Source of the DNA: Aliivibrio fischeri ES114
GTDB lineage: Bacteria > Pseudomonadota > Gammaproteobacteria > Enterobacterales > Vibrionaceae
Assembly: GCF_000011805.1 (NCBI RefSeq)
Contig: NC_006841.2
DNA: 32,000 bases
Strand: one strand, 5' to 3'
A model generated the notes under the pieces. The model searched no databases, was not told where the DNA came from, and was given only the letters and a program-made list of their open reading frames with translations. Below are positions 1-24,219 of this stretch, piece after piece; positions within the stretch are counted from its first letter, which is position 1, and each line of letters begins with the position of its first letter. Position numbers and translations under genes: made by a program.

Positions 1-378
1 GACACATTAGGTCATGATGTGGGTGACGAGGTTTTAAAGAAAACGGCTCAACTGTTAACTGAGACGGTGAGAAGTCGTGATAATGTATTCCGTCTTGGTG
101 GTGATGAGTTTTTAGTTATTGGTCAAGGTATAGCTCAATGTTCAGGGGTGAAAAAGCTAACCTCGAAACTATTAGAGCAGTTTAAGTTTCCCGTAAATAT
201 CGGCAGTGAATCTCTATCTATTTCCCCTAGTGTCGGTGTTGCTATTTATCCTGATGACAGCATTGATGGCGAAGAGCTTATAAAGTTTGCTGACATCGCC
301 ATGTATGAGGCCAAAAAAGATAAAGGCAACTCATATAAAGAGTTTGCCCCTATTATGCTTAAACGAGAAACGGATTGA
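1..378 (+). CDS. Diguanylate cyclase (GGDEF domain), C-terminal fragment; the 5' end lies outside the window
   Basis: The frame is open from the window edge. The translation contains FRLGGDEFLVI (GGDEF motif) preceded by RSRD (RxxD I-site spacing). Stop TGA at 376-378. Confidence 0.85.
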   Translation, partial: DTLGHDVGDEVLKKTAQLLTETVRSRDNVFRLGGDEFLVIGQGIAQCSGVKKLTSKLLEQFKFPVNIGSESLSISPSVGVAIYPDDSIDGEELIKFADIAMYEAKKDKGNSYKEFAPIMLKRETD

Positions 379-2350
379 TTTCTTTTGCTATATGGTAACG
401 ATTTTTTCCTGAAAGTTTAGCATGGTACATGGCCTTATCAGCTTTTTCTAAAGCCTCTTCTAATGGCGTCTGATCGTTACCAGACCAGTAGTATGCTCCA
501 ATACTTGCTGATACATAAGGAATGGCTCCATTAATATGAATAGGGTAGCTAATTGCATTTAAGATACGCTGCAAAATAGCATTAATTTCTTGAGTCGCTA
601 CCCTCGGATTTGTTAAGTACAAACCAAGTAAAAACTCATCGCCAGATAGACGAGCGACAAGATCGTTTTCAAAAACATTATTGGTCAAACGTTGTGAAAT
701 GATTTTCAATAAATCGTCACCACATTGATGCCCATAAGTATCATTTACCGCTTTAAAACCATCTAAATCGAGGAAGATTAGATAAACGGATTTCTGTTTT
801 TTATGTGCATTAAGTAGTTGTTTATAAGCATTTTGACGGTTAGCTAATTGTGTTAACCCATCATGGTTGGCTTCAAAGTTAAGGCGTTGAAGCTCTTTTA
901 CTTGAGTTTGGTCATTAAGTGATATTACAAATGACTCTACTTTATTATCGCCATTTTTGATTAATTTAATGGTTAATAAACAAGGTAACCAATGTGATTT
1001 GTTACCGTGCTTTCTTGAAAAAAACTGACTTGTAACGTCTGTTTGAAGTTTTAAATAACCTACTTTTAGCACTTGTTTTAATACCGATGTATTGAGCTCG
1101 ATAGGCTGACGTAAATGCAGCTGATCTAGATTGGTGATGTTTCCAAATGTTTGAATAAAGGCATTATTTTTAGTCTCTATTACCATTTTTCTTGTTACAA
1201 CAATCACTGAACTTGGATTTTGGTCAAAAATCATTTCAGCCATTCGTTGACGTTGCTCAATGAGATAACGTTGACTGATATCTTCTATATGTACTAATGA
1301 ATTATTTTCACCAGCAATCGGGTAAGTCGATATTTGATATTGCTGTCCTGTACCTTGGTGGCGAAGGGTTGTTGGTTCTAATCGTTGATGGGTTTCGATG
1401 CATTCACGAAGTAGAGTTAATCGGTTGATTGGTTCAAAATCAGACAACAAATTTTCAATATGTTGCTGATTAAGAGAGGTCATTTCATCATTATTGAGCT
1501 GAATTTGAGGCAACAATAAACGAGCTGCTGGATTATGATAAATTACTTTTTTATTAGGTGAGACAACTAATAGCCCTTGATCAAGTGAATCTAGCACTTG
1601 ATTAATGTAATGAGTTTTATCTTCAAGTCTTTGAAATGCCAGTGTTAATTGAGAGTCACGTTGACTTAAGTTATCAAGCATTTCATTAAAGCAATGAGTG
1701 AGCTTTCCAATTTCGTCAGGATGAACAATATGCAGCCTTTGTTCTGTTACCCCTTTTTTGATAACTGTTTGCATTGAATTAAACATGGACAATAAAGGTG
1801 TGGCAATTAATCGGTGTACTCTGTGTGCAAAGAATAACGCTAAAAGTGAGAAGATAACCGTAGTAATTAAGAAAATGGTTAAAATCTGATTGCGTTGTTC
1901 AAACATGCTGTCTTTTGAGGCCCATACTGTCAGATTACCAAGGTGTTCATTATCTAATGTTATTGGGTGTGTAATTGCAAAAAAGACTGAGTGTGAACAT
2001 TGGATATTTCGTTCGTGCCATGAACAGTTTTCAGGCAAGTTATCTAATTTGGCGAAAGGTTCGCTATTAATATGCTCAACTCGAGCAGCGATCACTTCAG
2101 GATCAAAGGACAGTGCATTCATTTGATCTAAACCTGTTTGTTGGTCATTAAAGATCAACGCACCAGATAGATTGCTAGCAATACCTTGAGCGAGAATAGA
2201 CGTACGAGTGTATAAATTAGCACTATGAGTTACTCCCATAAAATGAGCAACACTTGCCCCTAGAATCATTGTACTAAGGGTCAGTAATGTCCAAATAGGG
2301 TAGATGACTTTTTTACGTAACGGTAATGCACTGAACCATTGAAGTATCAT
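359..2350 (-). CDS. Membrane sensor diguanylate cyclase: N-terminal TM + CHASE8-like periplasmic domain + TM + HAMP + PAS-like region + GGDEF domain with an SGDEF variant motif
   Basis: 663-aa ORF. There are two hydrophobic segments (IYPIWTLLTLSTMILGASVA and ILTIFLITTVIFSLLALFFA) flanking about 130 aa whose pattern (LAQGIASNLSGALIFNDQQTGLDQMNAL...PEVIAARV) is typical of CHASE8. The C-terminal part has LIFLDLDGFKAVNDTYGHQCGD...RLSGDEFLL. The ATG overlaps the upstream gene's stop (ATGA). Confidence 0.85.
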   Translation of the reverse strand: MILQWFSALPLRKKVIYPIWTLLTLSTMILGASVAHFMGVTHSANLYTRTSILAQGIASNLSGALIFNDQQTGLDQMNALSFDPEVIAARVEHINSEPFAKLDNLPENCSWHERNIQCSHSVFFAITHPITLDNEHLGNLTVWASKDSMFEQRNQILTIFLITTVIFSLLALFFAHRVHRLIATPLLSMFNSMQTVIKKGVTEQRLHIVHPDEIGKLTHCFNEMLDNLSQRDSQLTLAFQRLEDKTHYINQVLDSLDQGLLVVSPNKKVIYHNPAARLLLPQIQLNNDEMTSLNQQHIENLLSDFEPINRLTLLRECIETHQRLEPTTLRHQGTGQQYQISTYPIAGENNSLVHIEDISQRYLIEQRQRMAEMIFDQNPSSVIVVTRKMVIETKNNAFIQTFGNITNLDQLHLRQPIELNTSVLKQVLKVGYLKLQTDVTSQFFSRKHGNKSHWLPCLLTIKLIKNGDNKVESFVISLNDQTQVKELQRLNFEANHDGLTQLANRQNAYKQLLNAHKKQKSVYLIFLDLDGFKAVNDTYGHQCGDDLLKIISQRLTNNVFENDLVARLSGDEFLLGLYLTNPRVATQEINAILQRILNAISYPIHINGAIPYVSASIGAYYWSGNDQTPLEEALEKADKAMYHAKLSGKNRYHIAKEINPFLV

Positions 2351-2946
2351 AATGACCCCTCATTGGTTGCTATTTCAGATACAGATAATAATTGTGAACG
2401 AAGAGAAAGCTCTGTTGGCTTAATATTATGTAAACTGATCAAAGGTTTAATTCTATTATTTACTTTAATGAAAGCAATCATTCCACCTGCTGTAATAAAC
2501 GGCTGGCCATCACCGATTAACAGTGCGTGTGGTTGCGAGATTTTAAATGTATTGATAATGCTAGGGTCTTGAGTCGAGAGATAAATGACATGGCATGTTT
2601 CTCGTTCGAGATCTTTTACGGATGAATAGGGAATATAGTTAGCTTGTGTTGGTTTTTTGGTTATCAATGCTTGTAATGTATTACTGACATCTAGATCTAA
2701 TTCACTGCAGAAATTAAATTGTTTATTGCTTGGGGCGAACTCACCCCAAGAGGTTAAAAAAGCAAAACGAAATAAATAAACTGCTTTCAAATTATGATCT
2801 TGAATGTTGTTATCGTCAGCTTTGAGATTAAAACTTATAAGTAAAAGCAGCAGGCAGCCTATTACTTTAGAGCATAGCCCATAAAATAATGGTGTGGGTG
2901 AGTTTGCCTGTGCTTTTGTTTTGAACATGGCTATATAAAATTCCAA
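2347..2946 (-). CDS. YfiR-like periplasmic protein (DUF4154 family)
   Basis: 199-aa ORF with a signal-peptide-like N-terminus (CLLLLLISFNLKA/DD) and the motif LKAVYLFRFAFLTSW, typical of YfiR/DUF4154. An alternative start at Met7 (nt 2928) would remove the 16-nt overlap with the TBDR gene. The stop overlaps the DGC start by 4 nt. Confidence 0.7.
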   Translation of the reverse strand: MEFYIAMFKTKAQANSPTPLFYGLCSKVIGCLLLLLISFNLKADDNNIQDHNLKAVYLFRFAFLTSWGEFAPSNKQFNFCSELDLDVSNTLQALITKKPTQANYIPYSSVKDLERETCHVIYLSTQDPSIINTFKISQPHALLIGDGQPFITAGGMIAFIKVNNRIKPLISLHNIKPTELSLRSQLLSVSEIATNEGSL

Positions 2947-5114
2947 CTTAATTCAGCATAGTATTGAGTACCATTTGCAAATGGCCCAAATTGCTCTGGG
3001 TATTCTTTTAATTGGTCACTACCTAGGTTCTCAGCACTTAATTTTATGCTTGGCCATGTTGGTTTATGTTGCCAATTAATCGACATATCAATCGTAACGA
3101 CTTCTGGCCAGATCGTATAATCGTCACCATAAGATTGATATGCTTGAATTAATGCTTCGTCAGGTTCTGATGCTGAAACATAATTCACTACTGATGAAAC
3201 CCAAACTGTTGGATGAATATCCCACATCACGTGCAGTGTGGCATAGTGATGAGGCGTATTTTCTAGATCTAAAATAGGCAATTCATTTGAACCGCAGATA
3301 GAGCCGTTACAATCTCCCTCGATTGTCTTATAGCTGTAATTGGCATTGATTTGCAAGACATCGATTGGTTGCCATTGGATACTCACCTCTCCTCCCATAG
3401 TTTCTTGGGAGAGAGGGTCAACTAATTGAGCAAACATATCATCAATAATTGTGCCGCTAGAATGCTGAGAGCTATCAGGTGTAAAGTATCGACTTCCTCC
3501 GAGACCTCTATAAGCTCTAACATTATCATGCTGACTATAGAATAGGCTTAGGCTTACTTGGAATTGATTATCTTGCCAATAACGGTAACCAATTTCATAC
3601 GTATCGACAGATTCCATGTCTAAATCACGATTACCTAAGTAATGATAGGACATCATGTAGTCATAATAATTTACACTACCATCAGGATTGACGGTATAAG
3701 CACAACTACTGCAATAACTGTTTTTTTGAAACTGTGTATCTAGCTCTAAACGAGAAGGTGTAATGACTGCTCGACCCCAACCCATCCATAAACGTTGGTT
3801 GTCCGTTAATTTTTGTAATGCGCGAACTTGAGGTTGTGAGTACCACTCTTCAGTGATATTGGCATATTGAATACGATTGCCTAGTGTGATTTCTGTTGAA
3901 TCAGTTACATCAACAGCCCAGTTTGCATAAAAACCATAGCTTTGGTTTAAGAACTTATGATCATCAATGGTGCGAATATAAGGTGAGAAGTACTGCTCTT
4001 TTTCAGAGAATTGAGCGTATTCTTCATCAATAATACGAGCATTTGCACCAAGTGTTAATATTCCCCAATCTTGAGTATTAAAGGTGTAACGAGTATCAAG
4101 ATCAATGCGAGTAAAACTTGCTGGTTCATTGGTGCTATCAGATTCACTATGAGTAACCCATAGTTGGTTTTCCCATTGGTTACCGTTTAGTTTTTCGTGA
4201 AGGTATTGGAAACCTGCAAATAACTCTTGTGAGTTCATTTCAGTTAAAAACACATCATAGTCATTTTTATGTGTCGTAGGATCAAGAAAAGCAGGAGTAT
4301 AAGTTAGCCACTGATAATCTTCACGAGACTGGATCCCGCCAAACTGAACAGAAACCGTATTTTGTAAGTTTTGGTAATCAGCGCGCATCCCAAAACGTTC
4401 GGTTAATACTTTTAGGTGTCTAAGCTCTTTAAAATGTTCATCAGTATCAGTAAACGGTGAGTGTTGTAATGATTCAATATAGCCAGATAAATGCGTGTTT
4501 TCGCTAATTTGACCGCTGTGGTGAGCTTTAAACTCTTTGTAGTCAAAATTACCTGTTGAAGCACTTAATTGTGCTTTAGGTGCGCTTTCTGCATCTTTTG
4601 TAATGATATTTATGACACCATTAACCGCGTTTCCTCCCCACATTGTACCTACAGGGCCTAAGACCACTTCAATACGGTCAATACTATCTAGGCTGACAGG
4701 TAAAGTATCCCAGTTAACACCAGAGTACATTGGGTTAACGGCACTTCGGCCATCTATCATGACTAAAAGCGTATTATTTTCACCTTGGTTTTTACTGCGA
4801 GCTGAAACGGTCCAGTCGTAATCGGAAAATTTGGCAACATGAAGCCCTGGAGCAAGAATTAATACATCGGCAATAGAACGGGCACTAGAACGTTCTATTT
4901 CTTTGGAAGTGATTACATGAACAGAAGCTGGAACATCTGACAGACTAAGTGATGTTTTGGTTGCAGTGACGACTTTCGTATCGGCTAGCGATTCAAGTGG
5001 CATATTGAGTAATGCATCAAGATCATCAAATTCATTATCTATGTTTGCGATAACGGGTGAAGACACAAAGATACATAAAGCATACAAAAATGGAGCACGA
5101 GATAGCATCGACAT
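2931..5114 (-). CDS. TonB-dependent outer-membrane receptor
   Basis: 727 aa. It has a signal peptide (ALCIFVSSPVIA/N) and a plug-domain pattern (ESLADTKVVTATKTSLSLSDVPASVHVITSKEIERSSARSIADVLILAPGLHV ... IDRIEVVLGPVGTMWGGNAVNGVINIITK). This is followed by a long beta-barrel-like sequence rich in Y/W/N that ends in an aromatic-rich terminus (ELSWNFI). Confidence 0.85.
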   Translation of the reverse strand: MSMLSRAPFLYALCIFVSSPVIANIDNEFDDLDALLNMPLESLADTKVVTATKTSLSLSDVPASVHVITSKEIERSSARSIADVLILAPGLHVAKFSDYDWTVSARSKNQGENNTLLVMIDGRSAVNPMYSGVNWDTLPVSLDSIDRIEVVLGPVGTMWGGNAVNGVINIITKDAESAPKAQLSASTGNFDYKEFKAHHSGQISENTHLSGYIESLQHSPFTDTDEHFKELRHLKVLTERFGMRADYQNLQNTVSVQFGGIQSREDYQWLTYTPAFLDPTTHKNDYDVFLTEMNSQELFAGFQYLHEKLNGNQWENQLWVTHSESDSTNEPASFTRIDLDTRYTFNTQDWGILTLGANARIIDEEYAQFSEKEQYFSPYIRTIDDHKFLNQSYGFYANWAVDVTDSTEITLGNRIQYANITEEWYSQPQVRALQKLTDNQRLWMGWGRAVITPSRLELDTQFQKNSYCSSCAYTVNPDGSVNYYDYMMSYHYLGNRDLDMESVDTYEIGYRYWQDNQFQVSLSLFYSQHDNVRAYRGLGGSRYFTPDSSQHSSGTIIDDMFAQLVDPLSQETMGGEVSIQWQPIDVLQINANYSYKTIEGDCNGSICGSNELPILDLENTPHHYATLHVMWDIHPTVWVSSVVNYVSASEPDEALIQAYQSYGDDYTIWPEVVTIDMSINWQHKPTWPSIKLSAENLGSDQLKEYPEQFGPFANGTQYYAELSWNFI

Positions 5115-5322
5115 GATATTGAATTAACACCAAATATAACTGAAATAAATATAAGGTATTAACTGAATACCCATTTTGTATATTTTGATGTAATTCTTAA
5201 GTTTAAGATAATGTTAGGAAAGAGATTTACGAGTTAACTCTGTATTTGTGTAATTTATTTCATCATACAGACGTGAAATTAGAATGTAATAAAAAAACAT
5301 TATGAGTTAATAAAAGAATATT

Positions 5323-5338
5323 AGTGATCTAAATCACC
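5323..5338. promoter_or_regulatory. Candidate CRP (cAMP receptor protein) binding site
   Basis: AGTGATCTAAATCACC matches the consensus core TGTGATCTAGATCACA at 13/16 positions, with both GTGA/TCAC half-sites intact and correct 6-bp spacing. It lies in the 558-bp divergent intergenic region between the TBDR operon and cmtB. Confidence 0.4.
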
Positions 5339-5418
5339 TATGATGATGTGCTAAATAATAGTGTTTAAAAAATAAAATAAATATCTAATCACACTTTAAA
5401 GCTTGTCAATTATCCAAG

Positions 5419-5434
5419 TGTGATTTTAATCATA
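5419..5434. promoter_or_regulatory. Candidate CRP binding site upstream of cmtB
   Basis: TGTGATTTTAATCATA matches the CRP core at 12/16 positions. The left half-site is perfect and the spacing is correct. It lies about 240 bp upstream of the cmtB ATG. Confidence 0.35.
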
Positions 5435-5672
5435 AAAAATAAGTTTTAATATTTATATTAATATGTGGGTTATATCAAATTTAATCTATTGAAATGTAGC
5501 AAAACTAAAATTTGTATAAATATTACTTATTTGTTTTGTGAGATTTGTTCTTTCTTTCCTATTGACTGTGATTATTTTGAGTTATCGATCACAAAATGTC
5601 ATCTATTGCCGACTGCCATCTTCTATATTGATAATAGTTTTATCAAATACAGACCAAGAAGAAGGCTCGCTC

Positions 5673-6116
5673 ATGCTATACGATTTAATTGATCATGATT
5701 TAATTGATGTTGTTAATCACGATATTGATGCGTGGGAAGACGCAGTAAAAACAACAACGCGTTACTTAGAACAAAAAGGGTACGTAACTGCAAATTATGC
5801 CGATGCTATTATTCAATCGACATATGATAATGGCCCATATTATGTACTTTGTCCAGGTATCGCTATGCCTCATGCCCGTCCTGAGGCAGGGGTGATAAAA
5901 ACAGGATTAGGCATTCATATATTCCCATCAGCCATCGAGTTTGGCTCTGATCTTGGTCCTGCCAATATATTACTTACCTTAGCTGCAAAAGATTCAGATA
6001 CACATATTGAAGTCATTCAAGCATTGAGTGAGATGCTTGTCGATGAAGAAAACATTGCAAAATTAACCGCAGCAACTTCAAAAAATGAAGTGCTTGATAT
6101 TATTAAAGCATATTAA
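5673..6116 (+). CDS. cmtB: PTS EIIA component, mannitol/fructose (EIIA-2) family, CmtB-like
   Basis: I chose ATG 5673, preceded by AGAAGAAGG, rather than the ORF-track start at 5538. The translation ...NGPYYVLCPGIAMPHARPEAGVIKTG...IQALSEML... aligns by eye along its length with E. coli CmtB, including the phosphorylatable His in the MPHARPE motif. Confidence 0.85.
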   Translation: MLYDLIDHDLIDVVNHDIDAWEDAVKTTTRYLEQKGYVTANYADAIIQSTYDNGPYYVLCPGIAMPHARPEAGVIKTGLGIHIFPSAIEFGSDLGPANILLTLAAKDSDTHIEVIQALSEMLVDEENIAKLTAATSKNEVLDIIKAY

Positions 6117-6129
6117 GAAAGGATATCTC

Positions 6130-7527
6130 ATGAACGCTAGAGCAAAAGTGCAAGCCTTCGGTGGTCATTTGACCGCGATGGTATTGCCAAACATCGGAGC
6201 CTTTATTGCATGGGGCTTTATTACTGCGTTATTTATTCCAACTGGTTGGATGCCAAATGAACAGTTTGGTGAAATCGTTGGCCCTATGATTACTTATTTA
6301 TTGCCGTTACTTATCGGCTATACCGGTGGACAGCTCGTCGGTGATAAACGAGGTGCTGTCGCTGGTGCTATCGGTACGATGGGTGTCATCGTTGGTGCTG
6401 ATATTCCTATGTTCGTTGGTGCCATGATCATGGGACCTGTGAGTGCATGGGCGATTGTTCAGTTTGATAAACGAGTTGAACACAAAATCCCATCAGGTTT
6501 TGAAATGGTGGTAAACAACTTCTCTCTTGGCATCATAGGTATGATCTGTTGCTTGGTGGCATATGAGATTGTAGGACCTGCAGTAACTGCGGCGAATTTA
6601 TTTGTAAAATCGGGTATCGAAGCTTTAGTAGCTACTGGCTTCCTTCCTTTACTTGCAGTCATTAATGAACCTGCAAAAGTTCTCTTTTTAAATAACGCTA
6701 TCGACCAAGGTATTTATTACCCACTAGGCTTACAAGCGGCAGCTGAAACTGGGAAATCTATTTTCTTCATGGTGGCATCTAACCCTGGACCTGGTTTAGG
6801 TATGTTGTTGGCTTATGCGAAATTTGGTCAAGGGTTAAGTAAACGCTCTGCGCCAAGTGCAATTATTATTCATTTCTTTGGTGGTATTCATGAGCTGTAT
6901 TTCCCTTACGTTCTAATGAAGCCAATTATGATTGTTGCAATGATTGCCGGTGCAGCAACAGGTATTGCTACATTCAATTTACTGGATGCTGGTTTGGTTG
7001 CTGGTCCAAGTCCGGGCTCTATTTTCTCTTATTTAGCATTAACACCAAAAGGCAGCTTTATCGCGATGCTTGCGGGCGTAGCAAGTGCCACGGTTGTTTC
7101 ATTCCTTGTTGCCAGTGCAATTCTGAAAATGAGCAAGAAAGAACAATCTGAAGATGAATTTGAGCAATCGGTTATCGATATGAAAGACATGAAAGCCGAA
7201 GGTAAAGCACAGCCTCAAGCATCAGTAGAAAAAACAGGTATGCAACCAATTAAATTTATCGCTTTTGCTTGTGATGCGGGAATGGGTTCAAGTGCAATGG
7301 GTGCCTCAACCTTTAAGAGAAAGCTAGTTAAAGCTGGTTATGACATTGAGGTTAAGAACTTCGCGATAGAAAAAGTACCAAGTGATGCGGATGTTGTTGT
7401 CACTCATGAAAGCTTAGAAGAGCGTGCAATTAAAGCAACAGGATTACCTGTGATAACGATTACCAACTTTCTTAATGACCCAGCACTTAACGAGTTACTT
7501 AATACGATTGAGACACAACAGGCTTAA
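6130..7527 (+). CDS. cmtA: PTS mannitol-family EIICB permease (CmtA/MtlA-like, no fused EIIA)
   Basis: Start ATG 6130, with RBS AAGAAAGGA upstream. The translation shows VQAFGGHLTAMVLPNIGAFIAWGFITALFIPTGW...LLPLLIGYTGG...EPAKVLFLNNAIDQGIY...IHELYFPYVLM and a C-terminal EIIB motif ACDAGMGSSAMGAS. Similarity to E. coli MtlA/CmtA is very close. Confidence 0.9.
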   Translation: MNARAKVQAFGGHLTAMVLPNIGAFIAWGFITALFIPTGWMPNEQFGEIVGPMITYLLPLLIGYTGGQLVGDKRGAVAGAIGTMGVIVGADIPMFVGAMIMGPVSAWAIVQFDKRVEHKIPSGFEMVVNNFSLGIIGMICCLVAYEIVGPAVTAANLFVKSGIEALVATGFLPLLAVINEPAKVLFLNNAIDQGIYYPLGLQAAAETGKSIFFMVASNPGPGLGMLLAYAKFGQGLSKRSAPSAIIIHFFGGIHELYFPYVLMKPIMIVAMIAGAATGIATFNLLDAGLVAGPSPGSIFSYLALTPKGSFIAMLAGVASATVVSFLVASAILKMSKKEQSEDEFEQSVIDMKDMKAEGKAQPQASVEKTGMQPIKFIAFACDAGMGSSAMGASTFKRKLVKAGYDIEVKNFAIEKVPSDADVVVTHESLEERAIKATGLPVITITNFLNDPALNELLNTIETQQA

Positions 7528-7540
7528 CGATATTTATTTC

Positions 7541-7561
7541 TGGGGGATGGTATGTCCCCCA
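7541..7561 (+). other. Intercistronic GC-rich stem-loop between cmtA and yggP
   Basis: TGGGGGA (7541-7547) pairs with TCCCCCA (7555-7561) around a 7-nt loop. No U-tract follows, and the SD AGGAG of the next gene begins 3 nt later. Confidence 0.4.
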
Positions 7562-7577
7562 AGTAGGAGAAAAAATT

Positions 7578-8849
7578 ATGACTCAAACAACAGCTGCGGT
7601 TATTTGTGGTGAAAAAGACATCCAATTAAGAACATTTGAATTACCGTCAATTTCTGCTGATGAATTGCTAGTTAAAAATATTTCAAACAGCGTGTGTTTA
7701 TCAACATACAAAGCGGCATTGCTTGGTAGTAAGCATAAGCGAGTGCCAGAAAATATTGATGAAGTTCCTGTTATTACTGGCCATGAATATGCAGGAGTAA
7801 TTGTTGAAGTTGGTGAGAATTTAAAAGATCAATTTAAAGCTGGAGACTCTTTTGTACTTCAACCTGCAATGGGGTTACCTACGGGGTATTCTGCGGGTTA
7901 TAGTTACGAAACTTTTGGTGGAAATGCAACGTATTCAATTATCCCTAAAATTGCTATCGATTTAGGTTGTGTATTGCCTTATGACGGTTCGTATTACGCA
8001 GATGCTTCTTTGGCTGAGCCAATGTCATGCATTATCGGTGCTTTTCATGCAAGTTATCACACTACACAGTTTGTGTATGAGCATGAAATGGGAATTAAAG
8101 AGGGAGGAACGTTGGCATTACTTGCATGTGCTGGACCTATGGGGATAGGTGCGATTGATTATGCGATTAACGGACCAGTAAAACCAAGACGAATAGTGGT
8201 TACTGATATTGATGAAGATCGTTTATCTCGTGCTGAAAGTTTAATCCCAGTTAGTGCAGCAAAAGCACAGGGTATCGAGTTGATTTATGTCAATACCATT
8301 GAGATGGAAGATCCTGTTACTTACCTTAAATCTCTGAACGATGATCAAGGGTATGATGATGTAATGGTATATGCTGCGGTTGCACAAGTATTAGAGCAAG
8401 CCGATGCACTTCTTGGTAATGATGGTTGTTTGAATTTCTTTGCAGGTCCTACGGATAAAGAGTTTAAAGTGCCATTTAACTTCTATAACGTGCATTATGA
8501 ATCAACGCATATTGTTGGAACGTCTGGTGGTTCTACAGGTGACATGGTGGAGTCTTTGGAACTATCAGCACAAGGTGATATTAATCCTTCTTTTATGATT
8601 ACACATGTTGGAGGCTTACAAGCTGCGCCTCATACCATTTTAAATCAGCTGGATATTCCGGGTGGTAAAAAACTGATTTATCCACATATCGATTTGCCTT
8701 TAACTGCAATTGATAATTTTGCTTCACTTGCAGAACAAGACCCGTTTTTCTCTGAGTTAGATGCGATCTTAGCGAAGAATAACTACGTATGGAATCAACA
8801 TGCAGAAAAAGCATTATTAGAGTTCTATGACGTGAGCTTAAGCGTTTAA
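7578..8849 (+). CDS. yggP: Zn-dependent medium-chain dehydrogenase/reductase, YggP-like (putative sugar/polyol-phosphate dehydrogenase)
   Basis: 423 aa with RBS AGGAG. NSVCLSTYKAALLGSKHKRVPENIDEVPVITGHEYAGVIVEVG...LACAGPMGIGAIDYAING...GTSGGSTGDM...IPGGKKLIYP is colinear with my recollection of E. coli YggP (425 aa). Confidence 0.85.
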   Translation: MTQTTAAVICGEKDIQLRTFELPSISADELLVKNISNSVCLSTYKAALLGSKHKRVPENIDEVPVITGHEYAGVIVEVGENLKDQFKAGDSFVLQPAMGLPTGYSAGYSYETFGGNATYSIIPKIAIDLGCVLPYDGSYYADASLAEPMSCIIGAFHASYHTTQFVYEHEMGIKEGGTLALLACAGPMGIGAIDYAINGPVKPRRIVVTDIDEDRLSRAESLIPVSAAKAQGIELIYVNTIEMEDPVTYLKSLNDDQGYDDVMVYAAVAQVLEQADALLGNDGCLNFFAGPTDKEFKVPFNFYNVHYESTHIVGTSGGSTGDMVESLELSAQGDINPSFMITHVGGLQAAPHTILNQLDIPGGKKLIYPHIDLPLTAIDNFASLAEQDPFFSELDAILAKNNYVWNQHAEKALLEFYDVSLSV

Positions 8850-8862
8850 TTCTATTAACTTT

Positions 8863-8890
8863 ATGTGGTAGCCTCTAGAGGTTACCACAT
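8863..8890. promoter_or_regulatory. 28-bp near-perfect palindrome/hairpin between yggP and the MtlR-family gene
   Basis: ATGTGGTAGCCTC-TA-GAGGTTACCACAT has 13-nt arms with one G.T position. It starts 14 nt after the yggP stop and ends 18 nt before the TTG start at 8908. No U-tract follows. Confidence 0.4.
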
Positions 8891-8907
8891 ACAGAGAGGT
8901 TTAAGCC

Positions 8908-9426
8908 TTGTCACAACATGTTGAATTGTTAGAAACCGTAGAAGAGTGTGATGATGCAACGTCATTTCTTTGTGCTTCTAACAAGTTAATTAATCTCAAA
9001 CTAAAAGCACTATTACCTAATATTTTTGTTCAAGATGAATTGGTGATGGAGTATGCCGTGGAGCCACTTTTAAAAGAAGATGGTCCGCTTGTGACGACTG
9101 ATGTGGTATCTAAATTGATGTTTGCGATGGGGAAAATATCATTAGAAACTTATGCAGATATTGGATTGTACGCCCAAGTTTTAGAATACGCGCAAAGTCA
9201 GCCAAATAAACTGTCATTTGGTGATGATATGATCTATGACTTTATTAGCAATCAAGCGGTATTATCAACACAGCAAGACAGCTTTTATCTTGAGTCAATC
9301 AATCAGTTAAAGTTTTCTTCTTTTGAAGTCTTTTCTCAAATGAGATATGAGTCTCTAATAAAAACCGTTCTCAAACTTTCTTGTGAAATGTTATTAGAAA
9401 AGATAGAAGAGGAAATCACTCAATAA
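8908..9426 (+). CDS. yggD: MtlR/YggD-family regulator (mannitol operon repressor family)
   Basis: 172 aa from a TTG start with RBS GAGAGG 8 nt upstream. The motif EYAVEPLLKEDGPLVTTDVVSKLMFAMGKIS matches the conserved KYAVEPLLDGDGPLGDLSVRLKLIYGLG block of E. coli MtlR/YggD. Confidence 0.8.
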   Translation: MSQHVELLETVEECDDATSFLCASNKLINLKLKALLPNIFVQDELVMEYAVEPLLKEDGPLVTTDVVSKLMFAMGKISLETYADIGLYAQVLEYAQSQPNKLSFGDDMIYDFISNQAVLSTQQDSFYLESINQLKFSSFEVFSQMRYESLIKTVLKLSCEMLLEKIEEEITQ

Positions 9427-14080: not shown

Positions 14081-14369
14081 TTTTGATTTTCTGCAAGTTA
14101 GTTATAAGTATATTTAGTTAGTTTATAGAATAAACTGTCAAAAAGGTGTCTTTATTTTGATAATTATGGAAGCGAGTGCAGATTTTATAGGATTTGGTAT
14201 CCATATAGAAGATATTTATATATTTATTATTCGAATGTAATTTCAAATCCTATTTTTATTATCTATTTTGCCTTGTTATGCACTTTATTTTTTGATCTCC
14301 TTATCTGTACGAGTATTGGTAAATTTTCTATTTTTTCCTACACTTAAATGAGTATAAAAAGGAGTGTTT

Positions 14370-14903
14370 ATGAAAGGGATTATTTTTTCAGAGTTTTTAG
14401 AGTTAGTTGAAGATAAATTTGGGTTAGAAGTTTGTCAGCAAATGTTGGATGAAAATAATGATGAAGGGGCTTACACCGCTGTTGGTACTTATGATCACAA
14501 GCATTTGGTAAAACTCATTATATCATTGAGTAAAGTCACTGGCGTAAGCATTGAAGATTTACAGCAAGTGTATGGAAAGTCAGTTTTTCTTACTTTATTT
14601 CAAAGCATGCCAGAGTTAGATGGACAGGCATTAAATACGTTTGAATTTATCAAACAAGTAGAAAGCTACATTCACTTAGAAGTGAAGAAGTTATACGCTG
14701 AAGCGAACCCTCCGCGTTTTAAGTTTATATCAAGTACAGAGACCGAAATGGTAATGGATTATATCTCTGCTCGTTGTTTCTCTCATGTTTGTTTTGGATT
14801 GATTTTAGGTTGTGCAGAACATTTTAATGAGATAATCGATATTCAGATGACTCCTGTTTTAGATGATGGTTCTCAAGTTCGTTTTACCTTAACTAAATCA
14901 TAA
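14370..14903 (+). CDS. hnoX: H-NOX (heme nitric oxide/oxygen binding) sensor protein
   Basis: ATG 14370 lies 6 nt after AAAAAGGAG; the ORF track starts 2 codons earlier at a GTG. The N-terminus MKGIIFSEFLELVEDKFG is typical of H-NOX. A candidate proximal His is present (YIHLEVKK), as is the heme-propionate YxSxR motif (YISAR). Confidence 0.85.
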   Translation: MKGIIFSEFLELVEDKFGLEVCQQMLDENNDEGAYTAVGTYDHKHLVKLIISLSKVTGVSIEDLQQVYGKSVFLTLFQSMPELDGQALNTFEFIKQVESYIHLEVKKLYAEANPPRFKFISSTETEMVMDYISARCFSHVCFGLILGCAEHFNEIIDIQMTPVLDDGSQVRFTLTKS

Positions 14904-14921
14904 ACGATTAAGGCGGGATAA

Positions 14922-16649
14922 ATGGATGTTGATAAAACAATTGAATTATTGAATCGGAAAATTAAACGAGAAAAGGCAGCGAGAAAAGCGGCTGAGGGAC
15001 TATTGGAACGTAAAAGCCATGAGCTCTATATGGCAAAGCAATTAGTAGAAGATACCTTGTTTACTGTCCAAGAGAAGGCTGAAAAAGACGTTGTTTTACT
15101 TGAGTTCAAAAGCTATCTCGATTCTATTTTATTAGATTACAATCAGCGATTATTAAAGGAGCAACCAACCCAAATGTTGTTGCAGAGTCTGATTAATGAT
15201 TTAGGTTGTCTTAACAGTATCCAATCCGTGTGTTTGTCTTTTTCGTCTAACGCCAACGAAACACTCACTCAATTATATGCCGGAAAGCATCAAGAGTTTG
15301 AAACGCTTTCTCAAGCTTCTTATCCTGTTCAATGGAATGAAAGCCTGACTCAAATAACAGTTTTTTTTGAACTTGAAAACATTGAATCAGGTGCTATTCA
15401 ACTTATCTTTAATACCTCACCAAATACAATGTGGCGCGATACGATAGAGAAACAGTTTAGTCTTATTTCTGAAATGATTAACGCTGCGTTTGAACGTAAA
15501 TATTTACTTGATAAAACCCTTAAAGAGAAAAAAAGAGCAGAAAGTTCAGAAAGAGCAACAAGAGACTTCGTTGCGATGATAAACCATGAATTAAGAACAC
15601 CATTAAATGGTTTATTAGGTTCAGCTGAACTTATGGAAGATACAGAAATAACGGACTATCAAAAGAAGCTACTAGAGACAATTCATCAATCAGGTCAAAT
15701 GCTAAGGATCATAATTAATGATTTGCTTGATTTTAGTAAGATGAGTGCAGGAATGTTAGAGCTTAAAATGGCAAATTTTAAGCCTTGTATCTTAGTGAAA
15801 ACTATCGAGCAGATCTTTACGCCACAGATGGCAGAAAAATGCTTACGATTTGATATCCATATTGCTGATAATTTGCCACAGACTCTTATGGGGGATATTG
15901 ATAGAGTTCAGCAAATTTTAGTGAACTTAATTGGTAATGCTTTTAAGTTTACGAAAAGTGGGCATATTAGTTTGAAAGTGGGTTGGCAGAAAAACGCTTT
16001 AGTTTTAATCGTATCTGATACTGGCTGTGGGATACCTCAAGATAAACAAAAGCTGCTTTTTGAGCCATTTACTCAAGTTGACAATTCTAGTCAAAGACAA
16101 TTTGAAGGCACGGGGCTTGGTTTATCTATTTGTAAATTACTCGTTGATGCGATGTCTGGCGAGTTAAGTTTTAAAAGTGAGCTAGGCGAAGGTTCTGAAT
16201 TTCAAGTTAAACTCCCATTAGAGGTAGTCTGTGAACAAAGAACACATTCAAGTGAAGATAATCAGTTGTCTTTTTCAATTGAGAATCTGTCTATTCTCGC
16301 GGTTGAAGATATTAAAATGAACCAAGTAATTTTAAATATGATGCTAAAGAAACTTGGAATAACTCCTGATTTTGCGAATGATGGTATGGAAGCGTTAACC
16401 TATTTACAAGAACACGATGTTGATATTGTTTTAATGGATTGTCGAATGCCGATTCTTGATGGATTTGAAACGACAAAACGTTTAAGGAAGCAAGGGTATA
16501 AAAAGCCCATCTTAGCATTGACCGCGGGAACCACTTCAATGGAGGTTGAAGCTTGTATTGAGGCGGGAATGGATGACACTTTGAGTAAACCTTATAAAGC
16601 AATAGAGTTAGAAGCAATGTTAAAGCTTTGGGGTTCTAAGTATGTATAA
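14922..16649 (+). CDS. hahK: H-NOX-associated hybrid histidine kinase (cytoplasmic; HisKA + HATPase_c + receiver)
   Basis: 575 aa with no TM segments and a coiled-coil N-terminus. It carries an H-box (MINHELRTPLNGLLG), N/G boxes (LIGNAFKFT, DTGCGIP, GTGLGLSI) and a C-terminal REC domain (LAVEDIKMNQ...VLMDCRMPILDG...LTA...KP). It starts 18 nt after hnoX. Confidence 0.85.
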   Translation: MDVDKTIELLNRKIKREKAARKAAEGLLERKSHELYMAKQLVEDTLFTVQEKAEKDVVLLEFKSYLDSILLDYNQRLLKEQPTQMLLQSLINDLGCLNSIQSVCLSFSSNANETLTQLYAGKHQEFETLSQASYPVQWNESLTQITVFFELENIESGAIQLIFNTSPNTMWRDTIEKQFSLISEMINAAFERKYLLDKTLKEKKRAESSERATRDFVAMINHELRTPLNGLLGSAELMEDTEITDYQKKLLETIHQSGQMLRIIINDLLDFSKMSAGMLELKMANFKPCILVKTIEQIFTPQMAEKCLRFDIHIADNLPQTLMGDIDRVQQILVNLIGNAFKFTKSGHISLKVGWQKNALVLIVSDTGCGIPQDKQKLLFEPFTQVDNSSQRQFEGTGLGLSICKLLVDAMSGELSFKSELGEGSEFQVKLPLEVVCEQRTHSSEDNQLSFSIENLSILAVEDIKMNQVILNMMLKKLGITPDFANDGMEALTYLQEHDVDIVLMDCRMPILDGFETTKRLRKQGYKKPILALTAGTTSMEVEACIEAGMDDTLSKPYKAIELEAMLKLWGSKYV

Positions 16650-19397: not shown

Positions 19398-22300
19398 TCA
19401 GTTTGTTTGTTCTCGGTTCCATATAATACGATCACTTCCTCTATAAATGCCAAAATGAATGATCGCTTTTATTGAATCTTCAAAAGATTGGTTATTATCG
19501 GCATCTTGTTGCAACCACGGTAAGTTTAATAAAGAAAGTGTTGGTACAACTTGTCCTTGGTTGCCATTACCTGGTGCTGTGAATGTCATACTTGTTAAGC
19601 CATTTTCAACATGAGTTTCATCTAAACTTGCTTTTGTTGTCCCTTTTCCTACTGGTAGCGCATTAGGATCGTTACCCACATCAAAACTGAATTCAGGCAG
19701 AGATAAAACGGTACAGCTGTCATTGATTTTGACGAATCGATTTCCGGTATAAGATTCTGTTTGTATTTTAGATTCAAGATCATTCAATTCAGAGCCATAT
19801 GCATCTTCCATAGTGATACGCCCCCACTCTTGTCGTTGAGTATCTGTGGCTGGAAATGCGTAACCCAGACAAGCACCAGAAGCATTGGTTTTATGACAAA
19901 TTTGGTCTTGGTCTCTTAAGTCATCCGCCGCTAATTGCAGCGTTATTGTATCTTCAACGGGTGCTTTAGGGTTGAAAGGTTTGATGTAACGTAAATTCGC
20001 CCCTTGCAGCTGCATTTTAGCTTGTGCTGGTAATTTAATTACGTTCCCCGGTGTCGCAAAACCAGAGCGCTGCCCTAAAACTGAAAGGGTTTCACTATCA
20101 ATGATGGACATATTTGATGGTGAAGCCGTATAGGTTCTTAAATTCCAACCGTTGTTATAACGCCACCATGAACCAATTGTGTAGTTTTGCAGTAAGGTTC
20201 CCGTTTCAGATAACGGATAAAGACTTAGTGTTGGCGATTCTGTAAAGCTGAACGTTTGTCCCATGTAAGTAAATTCATTACAACCCTCTTGAATGCTTGG
20301 TTTATCTCCCAATACATTAAAGTAAGCAGGAGTAAATCGACCAATAGAGCCTGTATTTGCCGCTTTAATTTGATAAGCCGAGCTACCTAAATAACCTTTT
20401 GGTGGGGTAACCGATATGTCAAATACACCCACTTCACTAATACTTTGAGGAACACGGTTGGTACTCCCTTGTGCTATTTGGTGATCGTAGTGGTTGGTCG
20501 ATAAGTTACCTGTATTCCCTCCTAACTGCTGAGAAGGAGCAACTAACGTATGATCTAAAATTAAATTATCTTGAGCGTAGTTTGGTGTCACAGGGTTATC
20601 AGCAAGGTAGGTGTCGTTATCTCCCATCCATGCGTGTGCTCTTACATTTAAATTAAAGGTTTCACCGGCGTGAGCAAAAATAGAGCAGCTTACGTCTTCA
20701 GATGAACAATTGCTGTTAGCACTTGAGTTATTTTTGTCAGTAACATAAGCACTTAAACCAACAGGAATACTGACAAATAAGTCACTTCCTTCAATATTTT
20801 GATAGTAACTTTTTTGATATTTAGCATTAAGTTGCAGTTGGCCGGCATCTGCGTAATTTAAGGTTATTTTTGCTTCGTTATTGGTAAAGTTTAATGCAAA
20901 TGTGGTTGCTGCACTTTCTTGTTTCCCAATGTCTTTCCATGAATTATTTACTAATCCATACAATGTCGGTGAACCAATTAAATTACTTTGCTTTGGTGTA
21001 ATGTAATCAGACCATAACTGAATATTTTTGGTACCAGTAAATGAGTTACCACAACCTTTGATAGTAGCTTCAACAGGTTTATTGGCTAACTTATCAGGAA
21101 CAATAACTGTCAAACCTTCTGATTCGAAGTTAAGGGTACAGTTTTTATCACTTAATGATTGGCCATTAATGCTACATAGTGTGTGACTAAATGGTTTTGT
21201 TGATGGTGATGAACTCACAACATCCAATTTAACGTTACCTTGTGTAGGTTTACCTATTGATAAATTAGCAATCCCGTTTCTAACCGTAATATTATTGCCG
21301 TTTAGCCAATAGCCATCGCCACCTAAATTACTGGTATCTAAGGTAACATCAACATCTTCAGTAAATAGAGTTGAACAAGATTCGTCGGCACAAGCACGTA
21401 ATGTGACATTAGATACATCACAAGTAGACCCTTGTCCTGAATGATCAAATTCAAAGTGATCAATTTGCTCACCAATTGGTTTTGAGTAAAGTGCACACAC
21501 TTTGAAATTATCAATCTCATGGGTGTTATAAAGCTGACCCGTTGAACCAGTTAATGACATGATGAAATTTTCAGGTGGTTCATCTTGATTATATTGTGGT
21601 CTTAATACATCAATTGGCCCAATTACTTTACTAAAGCTAGGTGCGTGCCCAGCATTAACCACACTACGTTCAACCGTTACATTTGCGTTATTTCGGTTGG
21701 TTGAATCAATAGTAATACGGTAACGATGTGTTCTATTGTAGCCATTATTATTGTCAATATCTGGAGATACACGAGTTCCTGCAATGTAGTTATAGCCTGA
21801 ATATCGTGCACCAGAACCACGTAATACAACAGATTGAGCCGTATTATAAGAGTTGTAGTTTTTAGACCCGCCTTCTTTTGAATAGTTACCGTATTCATCT
21901 AGACCGATACCAAGCCAACCACCTGTAAAACCGGGTTTAACGGCCTCTGAGTTATTCTTAAAGCCATAGCCTAATGGACCACCAAAAGCACCAGCTTGTG
22001 GGGTTACTTCTGCATCTGAAAATACAATAGCTAAACCATCAGCGCCGTTGCCGCCATAGGCCATGTAATCAAATTCAACTTCGATTTTATTACCAAGTGC
22101 AGGGTACAAATATTGATAAGAAGAGGCAGTTGATTGTGCTCTTCGGGCCTGTGTTAATTGCAGACGTCCATTTATGACTGTTGGCGTAAAAGAACCGCTG
22201 CTTCGGCTTGTTACCCAACTGGTGGTTAGACTGTCAAAATTGTCTTCATAACAGGTCATTTCGACGTTATCAGGACACGGGTGGCGTTGTTGATAAAGTT

Positions 22301-23795: not shown

Positions 23796-24219
23796 TACGA
23801 ATACCTACTTCAATAATACGTTGCAAAGTGGTGGTTCCAAATTTACAGGTGGCGGTGCTTGTTAAACTGTACACCTGTCGGCCAGAGTCTAATGTTCCAA
23901 TAGGTTTGCATTTTACTTGTGCTTTACATTGCGATAATCCATCACCCGAGAAGGTATAAACACTTGGTGTATTACCAGCAACAAAGCAACTGCCTGTTTT
24001 TTCCATATAGAAACGACTGATCTCAATTTGAGAGCCAGATTGAGCTGCCATGTTTGTTCTGGTTCCCATAATAGAGGTCACTACATGTGTGCTCATTTTT
24101 TGTTGGTTCTTCGTTGCCATTAAAGCAATAAAACCGACGACGATAAGAACAAAAATCGTCAGAATCAGAGCGGAACCTCGTTGAGATTTATTAAGGCGTA
24201 TTGGCGATAAGGACGTCAT
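23785..24219 (-). CDS. PilX_N/MshP-like minor pilin-like protein (no Glu5)
   Basis: I chose ATG 24219 (MTSLSPIRLNKSQRG/SALILTIFVLIVVGFIALM). The QRGxALI...hydrophobic helix is the PilX N-terminal pattern. The gene overlaps the upstream gene by 29 nt and the mshQ-like start by 11 nt. The ORF-track start at 24258 is less likely. Confidence 0.65.
   Translation of the reverse strand: MTSLSPIRLNKSQRGSALILTIFVLIVVGFIALMATKNQQKMSTHVVTSIMGTRTNMAAQSGSQIEISRFYMEKTGSCFVAGNTPSVYTFSGDGLSQCKAQVKCKPIGTLDSGRQVYSLTSTATCKFGTTTLQRIIEVGIRSDD

Follow-up and report, generated by a model that had tools for sequence, protein, structure and literature searches.

Signalling by TonB-dependent receptors (TBDRs) is known to work through FecA-type N-terminal domains and anti-sigma factors. 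Among envelope systems acting on cyclic di-GMP (c-di-GMP), YfiBNR uses the lipoprotein YfiB, which sequesters YfiR via the YfiR strand beta7 (PMC4655355). Malone et al. reported in 2012 that the core of this system, YfiR along with YfiN's periplasmic PAS domain, is modular, widespread and often found without YfiB, with kinase, Hpt or GGDEF-EAL outputs, and they make no mention of TBDRs (PMC3375315); that 'PAS' domain has since been reclassified as CHASE8 (PMC8085984). In Cycloclasticus sp. P1, a relay of PahS (TBDR), PahP (periplasmic binding protein), PahK (kinase) and PahR was characterised by Wang et al. (iScience 2023, PMC10570129). PahS binds a polycyclic aromatic hydrocarbon (PAH), and PahP takes the PAH over, leaves PahS and docks on PahK, as followed by surface plasmon resonance, fluorescence resonance energy transfer, co-immunoprecipitation and two-hybrid assays (PMC10570129). 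In addition, NCBIfam curates a trio of families, NF053590, NF053591 and NF053592 (TOL_0244-family TBDR, TOL_0243-family YfiR-like protein and YfiR-like-associated sensor histidine kinase); these models are curated annotations, and we found no experimental paper on the trio. Here we follow up an earlier note on three adjacent genes, VF_A0059, VF_A0058 and VF_A0057, which lie in a 32,000-nucleotide stretch of Aliivibrio fischeri ES114 chromosome II (contig NC_006841.2; hereafter the window) and encode a TBDR, a YfiR-like periplasmic protein and a CHASE8-containing diguanylate cyclase. Our comparative analysis suggests that they form a YfiR/YfiN-type periplasmic switch with a dedicated TBDR as its outer-membrane partner in place of the YfiB lipoprotein, an interpretation in which our confidence is about evenly balanced.

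The YfiR/YfiN module is already known, and the TBDR-linked subfamily is curated but uncharacterised; in the present case the output is a cyclase, and it occurs twice in A. fischeri. The earlier note, made from the sequence alone, had held that the triad was noticed only as a conserved neighbourhood and not characterised. That was too sweeping, since NCBIfam curates the kinase trio, VF_A0057 has been studied (PMC11575326) and the PahS/PahP/PahK relay is known (PMC10570129). We found no paper linking YfiR-family proteins with TBDRs. Neither PMC11575326 nor PMC3948606 ties VF_A0057 or VF_A0058 to YfiR/YfiN or to a TBDR.

All three minus-strand open reading frames (ORFs) are present where the earlier note had placed them (Table 1), and its description of them as tightly coupled agrees with both junctions. 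The TBDR stop codon is followed after 2 nt by the ATG of the YfiR-like gene at 2928 (ATA TAG cc ATG TTC), and the stop codon of the YfiR-like gene overlaps the cyclase start as ATGA (TCA TTA TGA TAC). For the first junction the note had allowed either an overlap or a gap of 2 nt. The gap is correct for the ATG, whereas the overlap applies only to an alternative in-frame start upstream, a TTG at 2946 that would overlap the TBDR gene. The note's length of 199 aa was counted from this TTG and has to be corrected: the YfiR-like orthologues, including a 98%-identical database protein (P0001), are 193 aa long, and we therefore take the ATG at 2928 as the true start of a protein of the same length. 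The primers A0057_F and A0057_R published for VF_A0057 (PMC11575326) match the window exactly at 2329-2350 and 359-382, which identifies the genes as A. fischeri VF_A0059, VF_A0058 and VF_A0057; the YfiR-like protein of the window is 97-98% identical to A. fischeri proteins. The junctions show that the three genes are translationally coupled, and a single operon is the best explanation for the arrangement; A0059-A0058-A0057 is also listed as a predicted operon in PMC3948606. Promoter-like hexamers occur upstream of the TBDR gene at 5409-5380, in a region where promoter-like sites are not enriched over shuffled sequence (17 found vs 22.9 expected).

The protein families assigned to the three genes were all recovered by Pfam profile scans, as the earlier note had anticipated, with matches to the TBDR plug (1.1e-16), DUF4154 (1.8e-24) and CHASE8 (4.3e-9). 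The AlphaFold2 (AF2) model of VF_A0059 (pLDDT 87.2, pTM 0.86) matched Cir, PirA, PfeA and BtuB in Foldseek searches with E down to 6e-35, indicative of a full plug and barrel, so that the note was right to call it a full-length TBDR. Its top NCBIfam model is NF053590, at 297 bits against a cut-off of 645. For VF_A0058, the top NCBIfam model is NF053591 (52 bits, cut-off 125), and the AF2 model (pLDDT 82.5) shows a single alpha/beta domain that matches the Pseudomonas aeruginosa YfiR (PaYfiR) crystal structures 4yna, 4zhu and 6ikk (Foldseek, TM 0.63-0.69). A profile of the broad YfiR-like family matched PaYfiR at 1.9e-15; a Vibrionaceae-only profile found nothing in the PDB at E<=0.01, and the broader profile was required to reach YfiR. 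Together, these results support the assignment of VF_A0058 as a YfiR-family protein with the YfiR fold.

Several side observations concern this protein. In the structural search, its model was matched best by a 158-aa 'substrate-binding protein' of Rhodothermus marinus with a single domain (5z6v, 8wgl, 6k1x), with the YfiR crystal structures ranking just under it. The DUF4154 profile had no sequence match to the 5z6v-type protein, and R. marinus is among the species with divergent yfiNR pairs according to Malone et al. (PMC3375315). A lipobox-like 'VIGC' raised the possibility that VF_A0058 is a lipoprotein, which we rejected because orthologues do not conserve the Cys and the hydrophobic core lies after it.

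The cyclase VF_A0057 matches CHASE8 (score given above), HAMP, PAS and GGDEF (2.3e-42) in Pfam. Against NF007423, the model for DgcN/YfiN, it scores 208 bits, under the equivalog cut-off of 325, and its CHASE8-HAMP N-terminus scores 81.5 bits against NF053592 (cut-off 194). Given the sub-cut-off NF007423 score and the extra PAS modules, VF_A0057 appears to be a relative of YfiN rather than its orthologue. The earlier note had described the periplasmic sensor as CHASE8-like rather than of the YfiN type. This contrast is a false one, since E. coli DgcN/YfiN itself matches CHASE8 at 1.3e-33, in line with the reclassification (PMC8085984). In YfiN, the AAVVF patch is the YfiR-binding site proposed by Malone et al. 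(PMC3375315). Its counterpart in VF_A0057 is GALIF (residues 63-67), in which A64 and F67 hardly vary among 42 TBDR-linked sensors, and the pattern (A/G/S)A(L/V/I)xF is present in nearly all of 94 linked sensors.

We surveyed the gene neighbourhood from both ends. The Vibrionaceae set comprised 30 loci from a one-genome-per-species scan with the YfiR-like protein, plus 1 from a contig lookup. All 31 loci, from Aliivibrio, Enterovibrio, Grimontia and Vibrio, keep TBDR, YfiR-like protein and CHASE8-PAS-GGDEF cyclase in the same order, and their flanking contexts vary. Further afield, one Verrucomicrobiia genome carries a TBDR, a DUF4154 protein and a CHASE8-HAMP-PAS-histidine kinase, and distant metagenomic DUF4154 loci include a trio with kinase output, a permuted sensor-TBDR-DUF4154 order, a divergent TBDR and one pair without a TBDR. 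The reciprocal test, from the TBDR side, took the 80 closest metagenomic homologues (23-53% identity), 11 of which gave uninformative loci that ran into contig ends. A DUF4154 gene is present in 66 of the 69 informative loci (96%). In 61 of these it follows downstream of the best-matching TBDR, nearly always directly, and in the other 5 it lies upstream. The co-occurrence of the three families, which the earlier note had proposed to check by such a survey, was thus found from both sides. The layout of TBDR, YfiR-like protein and CHASE8-HAMP sensor is also seen in L033, L034 and most of L042-L121. Among 42 adjacent sensors, CHASE8 occurs in 41, HAMP in 37, HATPase_c in 36, a receiver in 25, Hpt in 9, GGDEF in 7 and EAL in 5; TBDR, YfiR-like protein and CHASE8 make up a general input module that is mostly wired to (hybrid) kinases and in about one sixth of cases to c-di-GMP enzymes. 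A profile of the TBDR family, searched against 1.84 billion representatives (50% identity clusters), returned 14,535 proteins at E<=1e-30, a rough upper bound on family size as other TBDRs may pass this threshold; the top 150 matches are all full-length with at least 690 bits. These data show the TBDR family to be large, phylum-spanning and almost always beside a DUF4154 gene and a CHASE8 sensor, and they support the view that the TBDR is not an incidental neighbour of the YfiR-like/cyclase pair. YfiB, searched for with phmmer and the E. coli YfiB query, was found neither in the window nor beside 123 related loci (1.27 Mb), except for a weak OmpA-like ORF at L033, 3.5 kb away.

Some loci of these surveys depart from the common pattern. 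In L013 (Grimontia marina) the TBDR and the cyclase are each split into two ORFs, and L022 (Grimontia sedimenti) has a split cyclase; the breaks reflect frameshifts, pseudogenes or assembly errors. The three informative loci without a DUF4154 gene are L056, L080 and L083. We considered them as loci of a PahP-like binding protein and a kinase and rejected this on their unrelated neighbours (M14 peptidase, P460-like protein). Two to four tandem paralogous TBDRs stand around a single DUF4154 gene in L055, L070, L077 and L078, where several receptors may feed one switch, and L060 has two successive TBDR-DUF4154 pairs.

The linkage bears directly on the possibility of co-expression without any relay, in which an ordinary nutrient TBDR would share a promoter with a YfiR-like/cyclase pair acting as a self-contained envelope or redox sensor, so that, for example, biofilm formation tracks the expression of uptake genes. 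Such an arrangement would agree with the canonical transporter fold and TonB box of the TBDR and with the existence of a DUF4154-CHASE8 pairing without TBDR. It would also agree with a conserved Cys pair: Cys74 and Cys112 of VF_A0058 align with YfiR C71 and C110, the pair is also kept in TBDR-linked proteins, and the C71-C110 disulfide of YfiR forms reversibly with redox state (PMC4655355), so that the pair could sense alone. Nevertheless, we consider plain co-expression unlikely because the 96% reciprocal linkage extends across phyla and gene orders, with permuted, divergent and tandem arrangements, unlike that of a casual neighbour. Moreover, the TBDR bears no mark of a nutrient-uptake gene: the operon holds no gene for an ATP-binding cassette (ABC) importer, or any other cytoplasmic-membrane importer, or for a binding protein, and no Rfam riboswitch was matched anywhere in the window, including upstream of the TBDR. 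The best Fur-box match upstream of the TBDR is 12/19, the level of shuffled sequence, and iron regulation of the operon is therefore not supported. Finally, both paralogous TBDRs of A. fischeri come with their own YfiR-like protein and cyclase.

The second of these A. fischeri triads lies at L122:6001-10530 (contig MAJW01000098.1) and consists of a 687-aa TBDR, a 174-aa DUF4154 protein and a CHASE8-HAMP-PAS-GGDEF protein. Its proteins are 23-29% identical to those of the window, as anciently diverged paralogues, and they also match NF053590, NF053591 and NF053592 far under the cut-offs. The reverse cloning primer of VF_A0567 matches the 3' end of its cyclase gene, so that this triad includes VF_A0567. 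VF_A0057 and VF_A0567 both rank among the cyclases of A. fischeri whose overexpression has the strongest phenotypes (PMC11575326).

We then considered what part of the TBDR could serve as an output element. The Pfam scan finds no STN signalling domain in VF_A0059, which has only about 21 residues between signal peptide and TonB box. Directly before the TonB box stands the motif DALLNMPLESLADTKVVTATK, which in the wider family reads LxxLSLEELMNxEVTSVSK; LxxLSLEELM recurs in essentially all of the 123 family TBDRs taken from loci, and at least 133 of the 143 top library representatives have it too. This extension is flexible in the AF2 model, with pLDDT <50 over residues 16-45, and its 38-aa consensus has no PDB match at E<=10. 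The alignments with Cir and BtuB start only after it, at TBDR residue 44, from which point the receptor aligns with the Cir and BtuB chains from their residue 5-6 onward. The LSLEEL-type extension is specific to this TBDR family and a candidate docking segment. The TKVVTAT segment that follows, in which V48 is invariant in the family alignment, we take to be the TonB box from established knowledge of Cir and BtuB. A FecA-type transducer was considered and rejected, as the receptor has no STN domain and the window has no sigma or anti-sigma gene flanking the operon. As a separate feature, the TBDR has Cys pairs at about residues 469-472 (CSSC) and 599-606 (CNGSICGS), in barrel-region segments that are variable among homologues; the C-x4-C pair is retained in most Vibrionaceae orthologues (one is without it) and absent from distant kinase-linked TBDRs. 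These pairs could be loop disulfides or a metal site.

At the other end of the proposed pathway, published phenotypes suggest an active enzyme. When VF_A0057 is overexpressed, cellulose rises strongly and motility falls; most of this effect disappears in a SADEF mutant, showing that the SGDEF motif is needed (PMC11575326). Judging from these phenotypes, VF_A0057 appears to be active when overexpressed; we found no report of an enzymatic assay. Among the Vibrionaceae triad cyclases (the window, L001-L032, L122 and L123), AGDEF occurs in 19, SGDEF in 15 and GGDEF in only 3, so the replacement of the first Gly of GGDEF by Ala or Ser appears to be conserved in this clade. The transposon mutant VF_A0058::Tn has a soft-agar motility of 51% of wild type; its disrupted gene was annotated as 'hypothetical protein', and the reason for the defect was given as 'Unknown' (PMC3948606). 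Its low motility fits the loss of a cyclase repressor, which favours a repressor role for VF_A0058.

The main rival to a YfiBNR-like relay is ligand hand-off in the manner of PahS and PahP, in which the TBDR would use TonB energy to import a small molecule and pass it to the YfiR-like protein, whose loading would set its binding to CHASE8; the TBDR would then be a supplier and not a sink. The characterised Cycloclasticus system works in this way (PMC10570129), and the YfiR fold is half of a periplasmic-binding-protein fold (PMC4655355), with 5z6v, 3lkv and 3lft (the last with L-Trp) as neighbours. The conserved TonB box suggests real transport, and the loci with 2-4 tandem TBDRs per DUF4154 gene fit multiple ligand gates on one sensor. 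However, DUF4154 consists of one alpha/beta domain, about 145 residues long and without a two-lobe cleft, and the parts are not homologous to PahP and PahK as described. Loss of a ligand-dependent activator should not reduce motility, yet the VF_A0058 insertion does (PMC3948606), and a protein docking site would account more easily for the family-wide N-terminal extension of the TBDR. We regard hand-off as rather improbable.

A YfiBNR-like relay with the TBDR replacing YfiB would fit all the comparative evidence and is partly supported by it. At rest, the secreted YfiR-like protein would bind the GALIF patch of CHASE8 and hold the cyclase off, as YfiR does with YfiN. Ligand occupancy or TonB engagement of the TBDR would expose its flexible N-terminal segment, comprising the LSLEEL-type extension and the TonB box, in the periplasm, and the released segment would capture the YfiR-like protein at the outer membrane. 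The contact would probably form by strand addition, at the edge strand through which YfiR binds YfiB. The freed cyclase would make c-di-GMP, leading to more cellulose and less motility. In most other bacteria, the same input module drives histidine kinases.

The order of events could in principle be reversed, with the YfiR-like protein gating the TBDR at its TonB box or plug and the CHASE8 protein titrating the YfiR-like protein, such that a cytoplasmic or PAS-sensed state controls uptake. We know of no system that works in this direction. The two cytoplasmic PAS-type modules of the cyclase could take internal inputs, and a competitor of TonB would bind at the conserved segment by the TonB box. 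But in the cases that have been studied YfiR and YfiN signal inward (PMC3375315), and most partners are kinases with receiver and Hpt modules, built for signalling to the cytoplasm. Such a reversal therefore seems to us very improbable.

Several points weigh against the relay that we propose, with the TBDR in place of YfiB. Neither the results presented here nor the papers found document a contact of the YfiR-like protein with the TBDR or with this CHASE8 domain. VF_A0058 is only about 16% identical to YfiR, and it has Pro162 where YfiR has Phe162, at the centre of the patch through which YfiR is proposed to bind YfiN. YfiR of E. coli and of P. aeruginosa contains a C145-C152 disulfide, which is required for folding and borders the YfiB interface (PMC4655355). 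This pair is missing in VF_A0058, which has I145 and A152, and across 111 TBDR-linked DUF4154 proteins C145 occurs in 4 and C152 in 0; a conserved F-x3-GG-x3-F segment replaces the region in the TBDR-linked proteins. Given the low identity, Pro162 and the lack of C145-C152, the binding surfaces of VF_A0058 may differ from those of YfiR. The motility phenotype of VF_A0058 comes from one uncomplemented transposon insertion, and transposon read-through into VF_A0057 would yield an identical phenotype. In addition, the DUF4154-CHASE8 pairing without a nearby TBDR implies that the TBDR is an accessory input outside the core.

Extending the YfiBNR-like relay to the whole family, we put forward a wider proposal, which we hold only tentatively and judge somewhat less probable than the relay itself. 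The TBDR would represent a phylum-spanning class of TonB-dependent transducers without STN or anti-sigma factor, in which the LSLEEL-type extension would capture or release the YfiR-like protein and so couple occupancy or TonB energisation to CHASE8 kinases or, in Vibrionaceae, cyclases. A. fischeri would then have two such c-di-GMP channels, VF_A0059-57 and the VF_A0567 triad.

If this is true, a TBDR family wired to YfiR-like proteins and CHASE8 would constitute a second general route by which the outer membrane informs two-component and c-di-GMP networks. The system is widespread, and as a way of TBDR signalling it would be mechanistically new. It would supply the missing input for many YfiR-YfiN-type modules without YfiB and would account for the orphan motility mutant VF_A0058::Tn, described in 2013. 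It also offers a concrete hypothesis for VF_A0057 and VF_A0567, two strong and mechanistically unexplained cyclases of the squid symbiont A. fischeri, a tractable organism in which strains, reporters and assays exist for a direct test.

Table 1. Coordinates of the three genes, their main domains and the upstream region, numbered along the window.
Feature	Coordinates	Strand	Description
TBDR VF_A0059	2931..5114	-	727 aa; signal peptide, N-terminal extension, TonB box, plug, 22-strand barrel
N-terminal periplasmic extension of TBDR	4983..5045	-	residues 24-44 (NIDNEFDDLDALLNMPLESLA), just before TonB box
TonB box of TBDR	4962..4982	-	residues 45-51 (TKVVTAT); aligns with mature Cir/BtuB N-terminus
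TBDR plug domain	4614..4943	-	residues 58-167; Pfam PF07715
YfiR-like periplasmic protein VF_A0058	2347..2928	-	193 aa from ATG; Sec signal peptide, DUF4154 core
Inner-membrane diguanylate cyclase VF_A0057	359..2350	-	663 aa; TM1, CHASE8, TM2, HAMP, PAS, PAS-like segment, GGDEF (SGDEF motif)
CHASE8 periplasmic domain	1925..2206	-	residues 49-142; contains GALIF 63-67
GGDEF catalytic domain	398..871	-	residues 494-651; motif RLSGDEF (window positions 610-630)
AT-rich region 5' of TBDR gene	5115..5537	-	GC 0.30; presumed site of operon promoter

Next to the operon, an ORF on the plus strand (19-378) represents the 3' end of VF_A0056, a GGDEF gene convergent with VF_A0057, with a coding overlap of 20 nt (359-378). 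No terminator-like site was found between the two genes, and VF_A0056 overexpression gave no phenotype (PMC11575326). On the other side, a mannitol-type phosphotransferase system (PTS) cluster at 5538-9426 (+) encodes separate EIIA and EIICB proteins, a 423-aa protein of the zinc-type alcohol-dehydrogenase family and MtlR. The 423-aa protein occupies the place expected for mannitol-1-phosphate dehydrogenase, and the listed GTG start of the EIIA gene is probably too far upstream, the domain starting at residue 50. About 9 kb from the triad, at 14364-16649 (+), a gene for an H-NOX (haem-NO-binding) protein precedes one for a hybrid histidine kinase, a pair that we take to resemble the NO-sensing hnoX/hahK pair of V. 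fischeri. In the region 19398-26053 (-), a 1465-aa protein (Laminin_G_3, DUF6701) stands beside several small proteins that bear N-terminal methylation (pseudopilin) motifs, which suggests an MSHA-like pilus or secretion accessory cluster. A dimethyl sulfoxide (DMSO)-reductase-type operon occupies 26425-30335 (-), in which 27897-30335 encodes the molybdopterin catalytic subunit and 26425-27270 the anchor subunit DmsC.

Compared with described systems, the locus shares with the FecA-FecR-FecI transducers the use of a TBDR to take in the signal, with a periplasmic N-terminal segment ahead of the TonB box as the presumed output element. It differs from them in that this segment amounts to about 21 extra residues with no STN, and in that the partner is a soluble periplasmic protein with a CHASE8 cyclase or kinase. 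PA1613-PA1612-PA1611 of P. aeruginosa may be a kinase-type triad; the literature confirms only a PA1612-PA1611 operon and lists PA1613 as an iron-acquisition protein, and we treat the case as an unconfirmed lead. The NCBIfam trio has the same gene order and tight coupling. In contrast, its output is a histidine kinase and not a GGDEF cyclase, and the window proteins score far under all three cut-offs (297 vs 645, 52 vs 125 and 81.5 vs 194), which the metagenomic kinase-type trios L034 and L044, serving as control, all pass.

With the PahS/PahP/PahK/PahR system, the locus shares the cluster order of TBDR, periplasmic protein and inner-membrane sensor, as well as the lack of an ECF sigma/anti-sigma pair. 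There the TBDR binds the periplasmic protein, which binds the sensor, and the ligand is a signal and not food. Unlike the 193-aa single-domain DUF4154 protein and CHASE8 sensor found here, PahP is a 318-aa two-lobe substrate-binding protein and PahK has no periplasmic domain; PahP and PahK belong to families different from those of the window proteins, as set apart by their published description only. PahP is also a ligand-loaded activator, whereas VF_A0058 would act as a repressor. In NspS-MbaA of Vibrio cholerae, to the extent that PMC11575326 describes it, a soluble periplasmic protein likewise controls a membrane c-di-GMP enzyme via a periplasmic domain; there, NspS is a full homologue of polyamine-binding proteins, MbaA does not belong to the CHASE8 proteins and the system involves no outer-membrane receptor.

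From YfiBNR itself (P. aeruginosa YfiBNR/TpbB, E. coli DgcN, Yersinia HmsCDE), the locus differs in its outer-membrane partner, a 727-aa TBDR encoded upstream in place of YfiB, a 160-aa OmpA/Pal-like lipoprotein encoded downstream. Further differences are the divergence of VF_A0058 from YfiR set out above (identity, C145-C152 and Phe162) and, in VF_A0057, two extra PAS-type modules, the SGDEF motif and a score under the DgcN/YfiN cut-off (208 vs 325). The two systems have in common a secreted DUF4154/YfiR-fold gene directly upstream of, and overlapping, a CHASE8-HAMP-GGDEF cyclase gene, the (A/G)A(L/V)xF patch on CHASE8, the Cys pair equivalent to YfiR C71-C110, and a third, outer-membrane component encoded in the same operon. 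In both, moreover, loss of the YfiR-type protein lowers motility, as reported for E. coli yfiR (PMC4655355) and for VF_A0058::Tn (PMC3948606).

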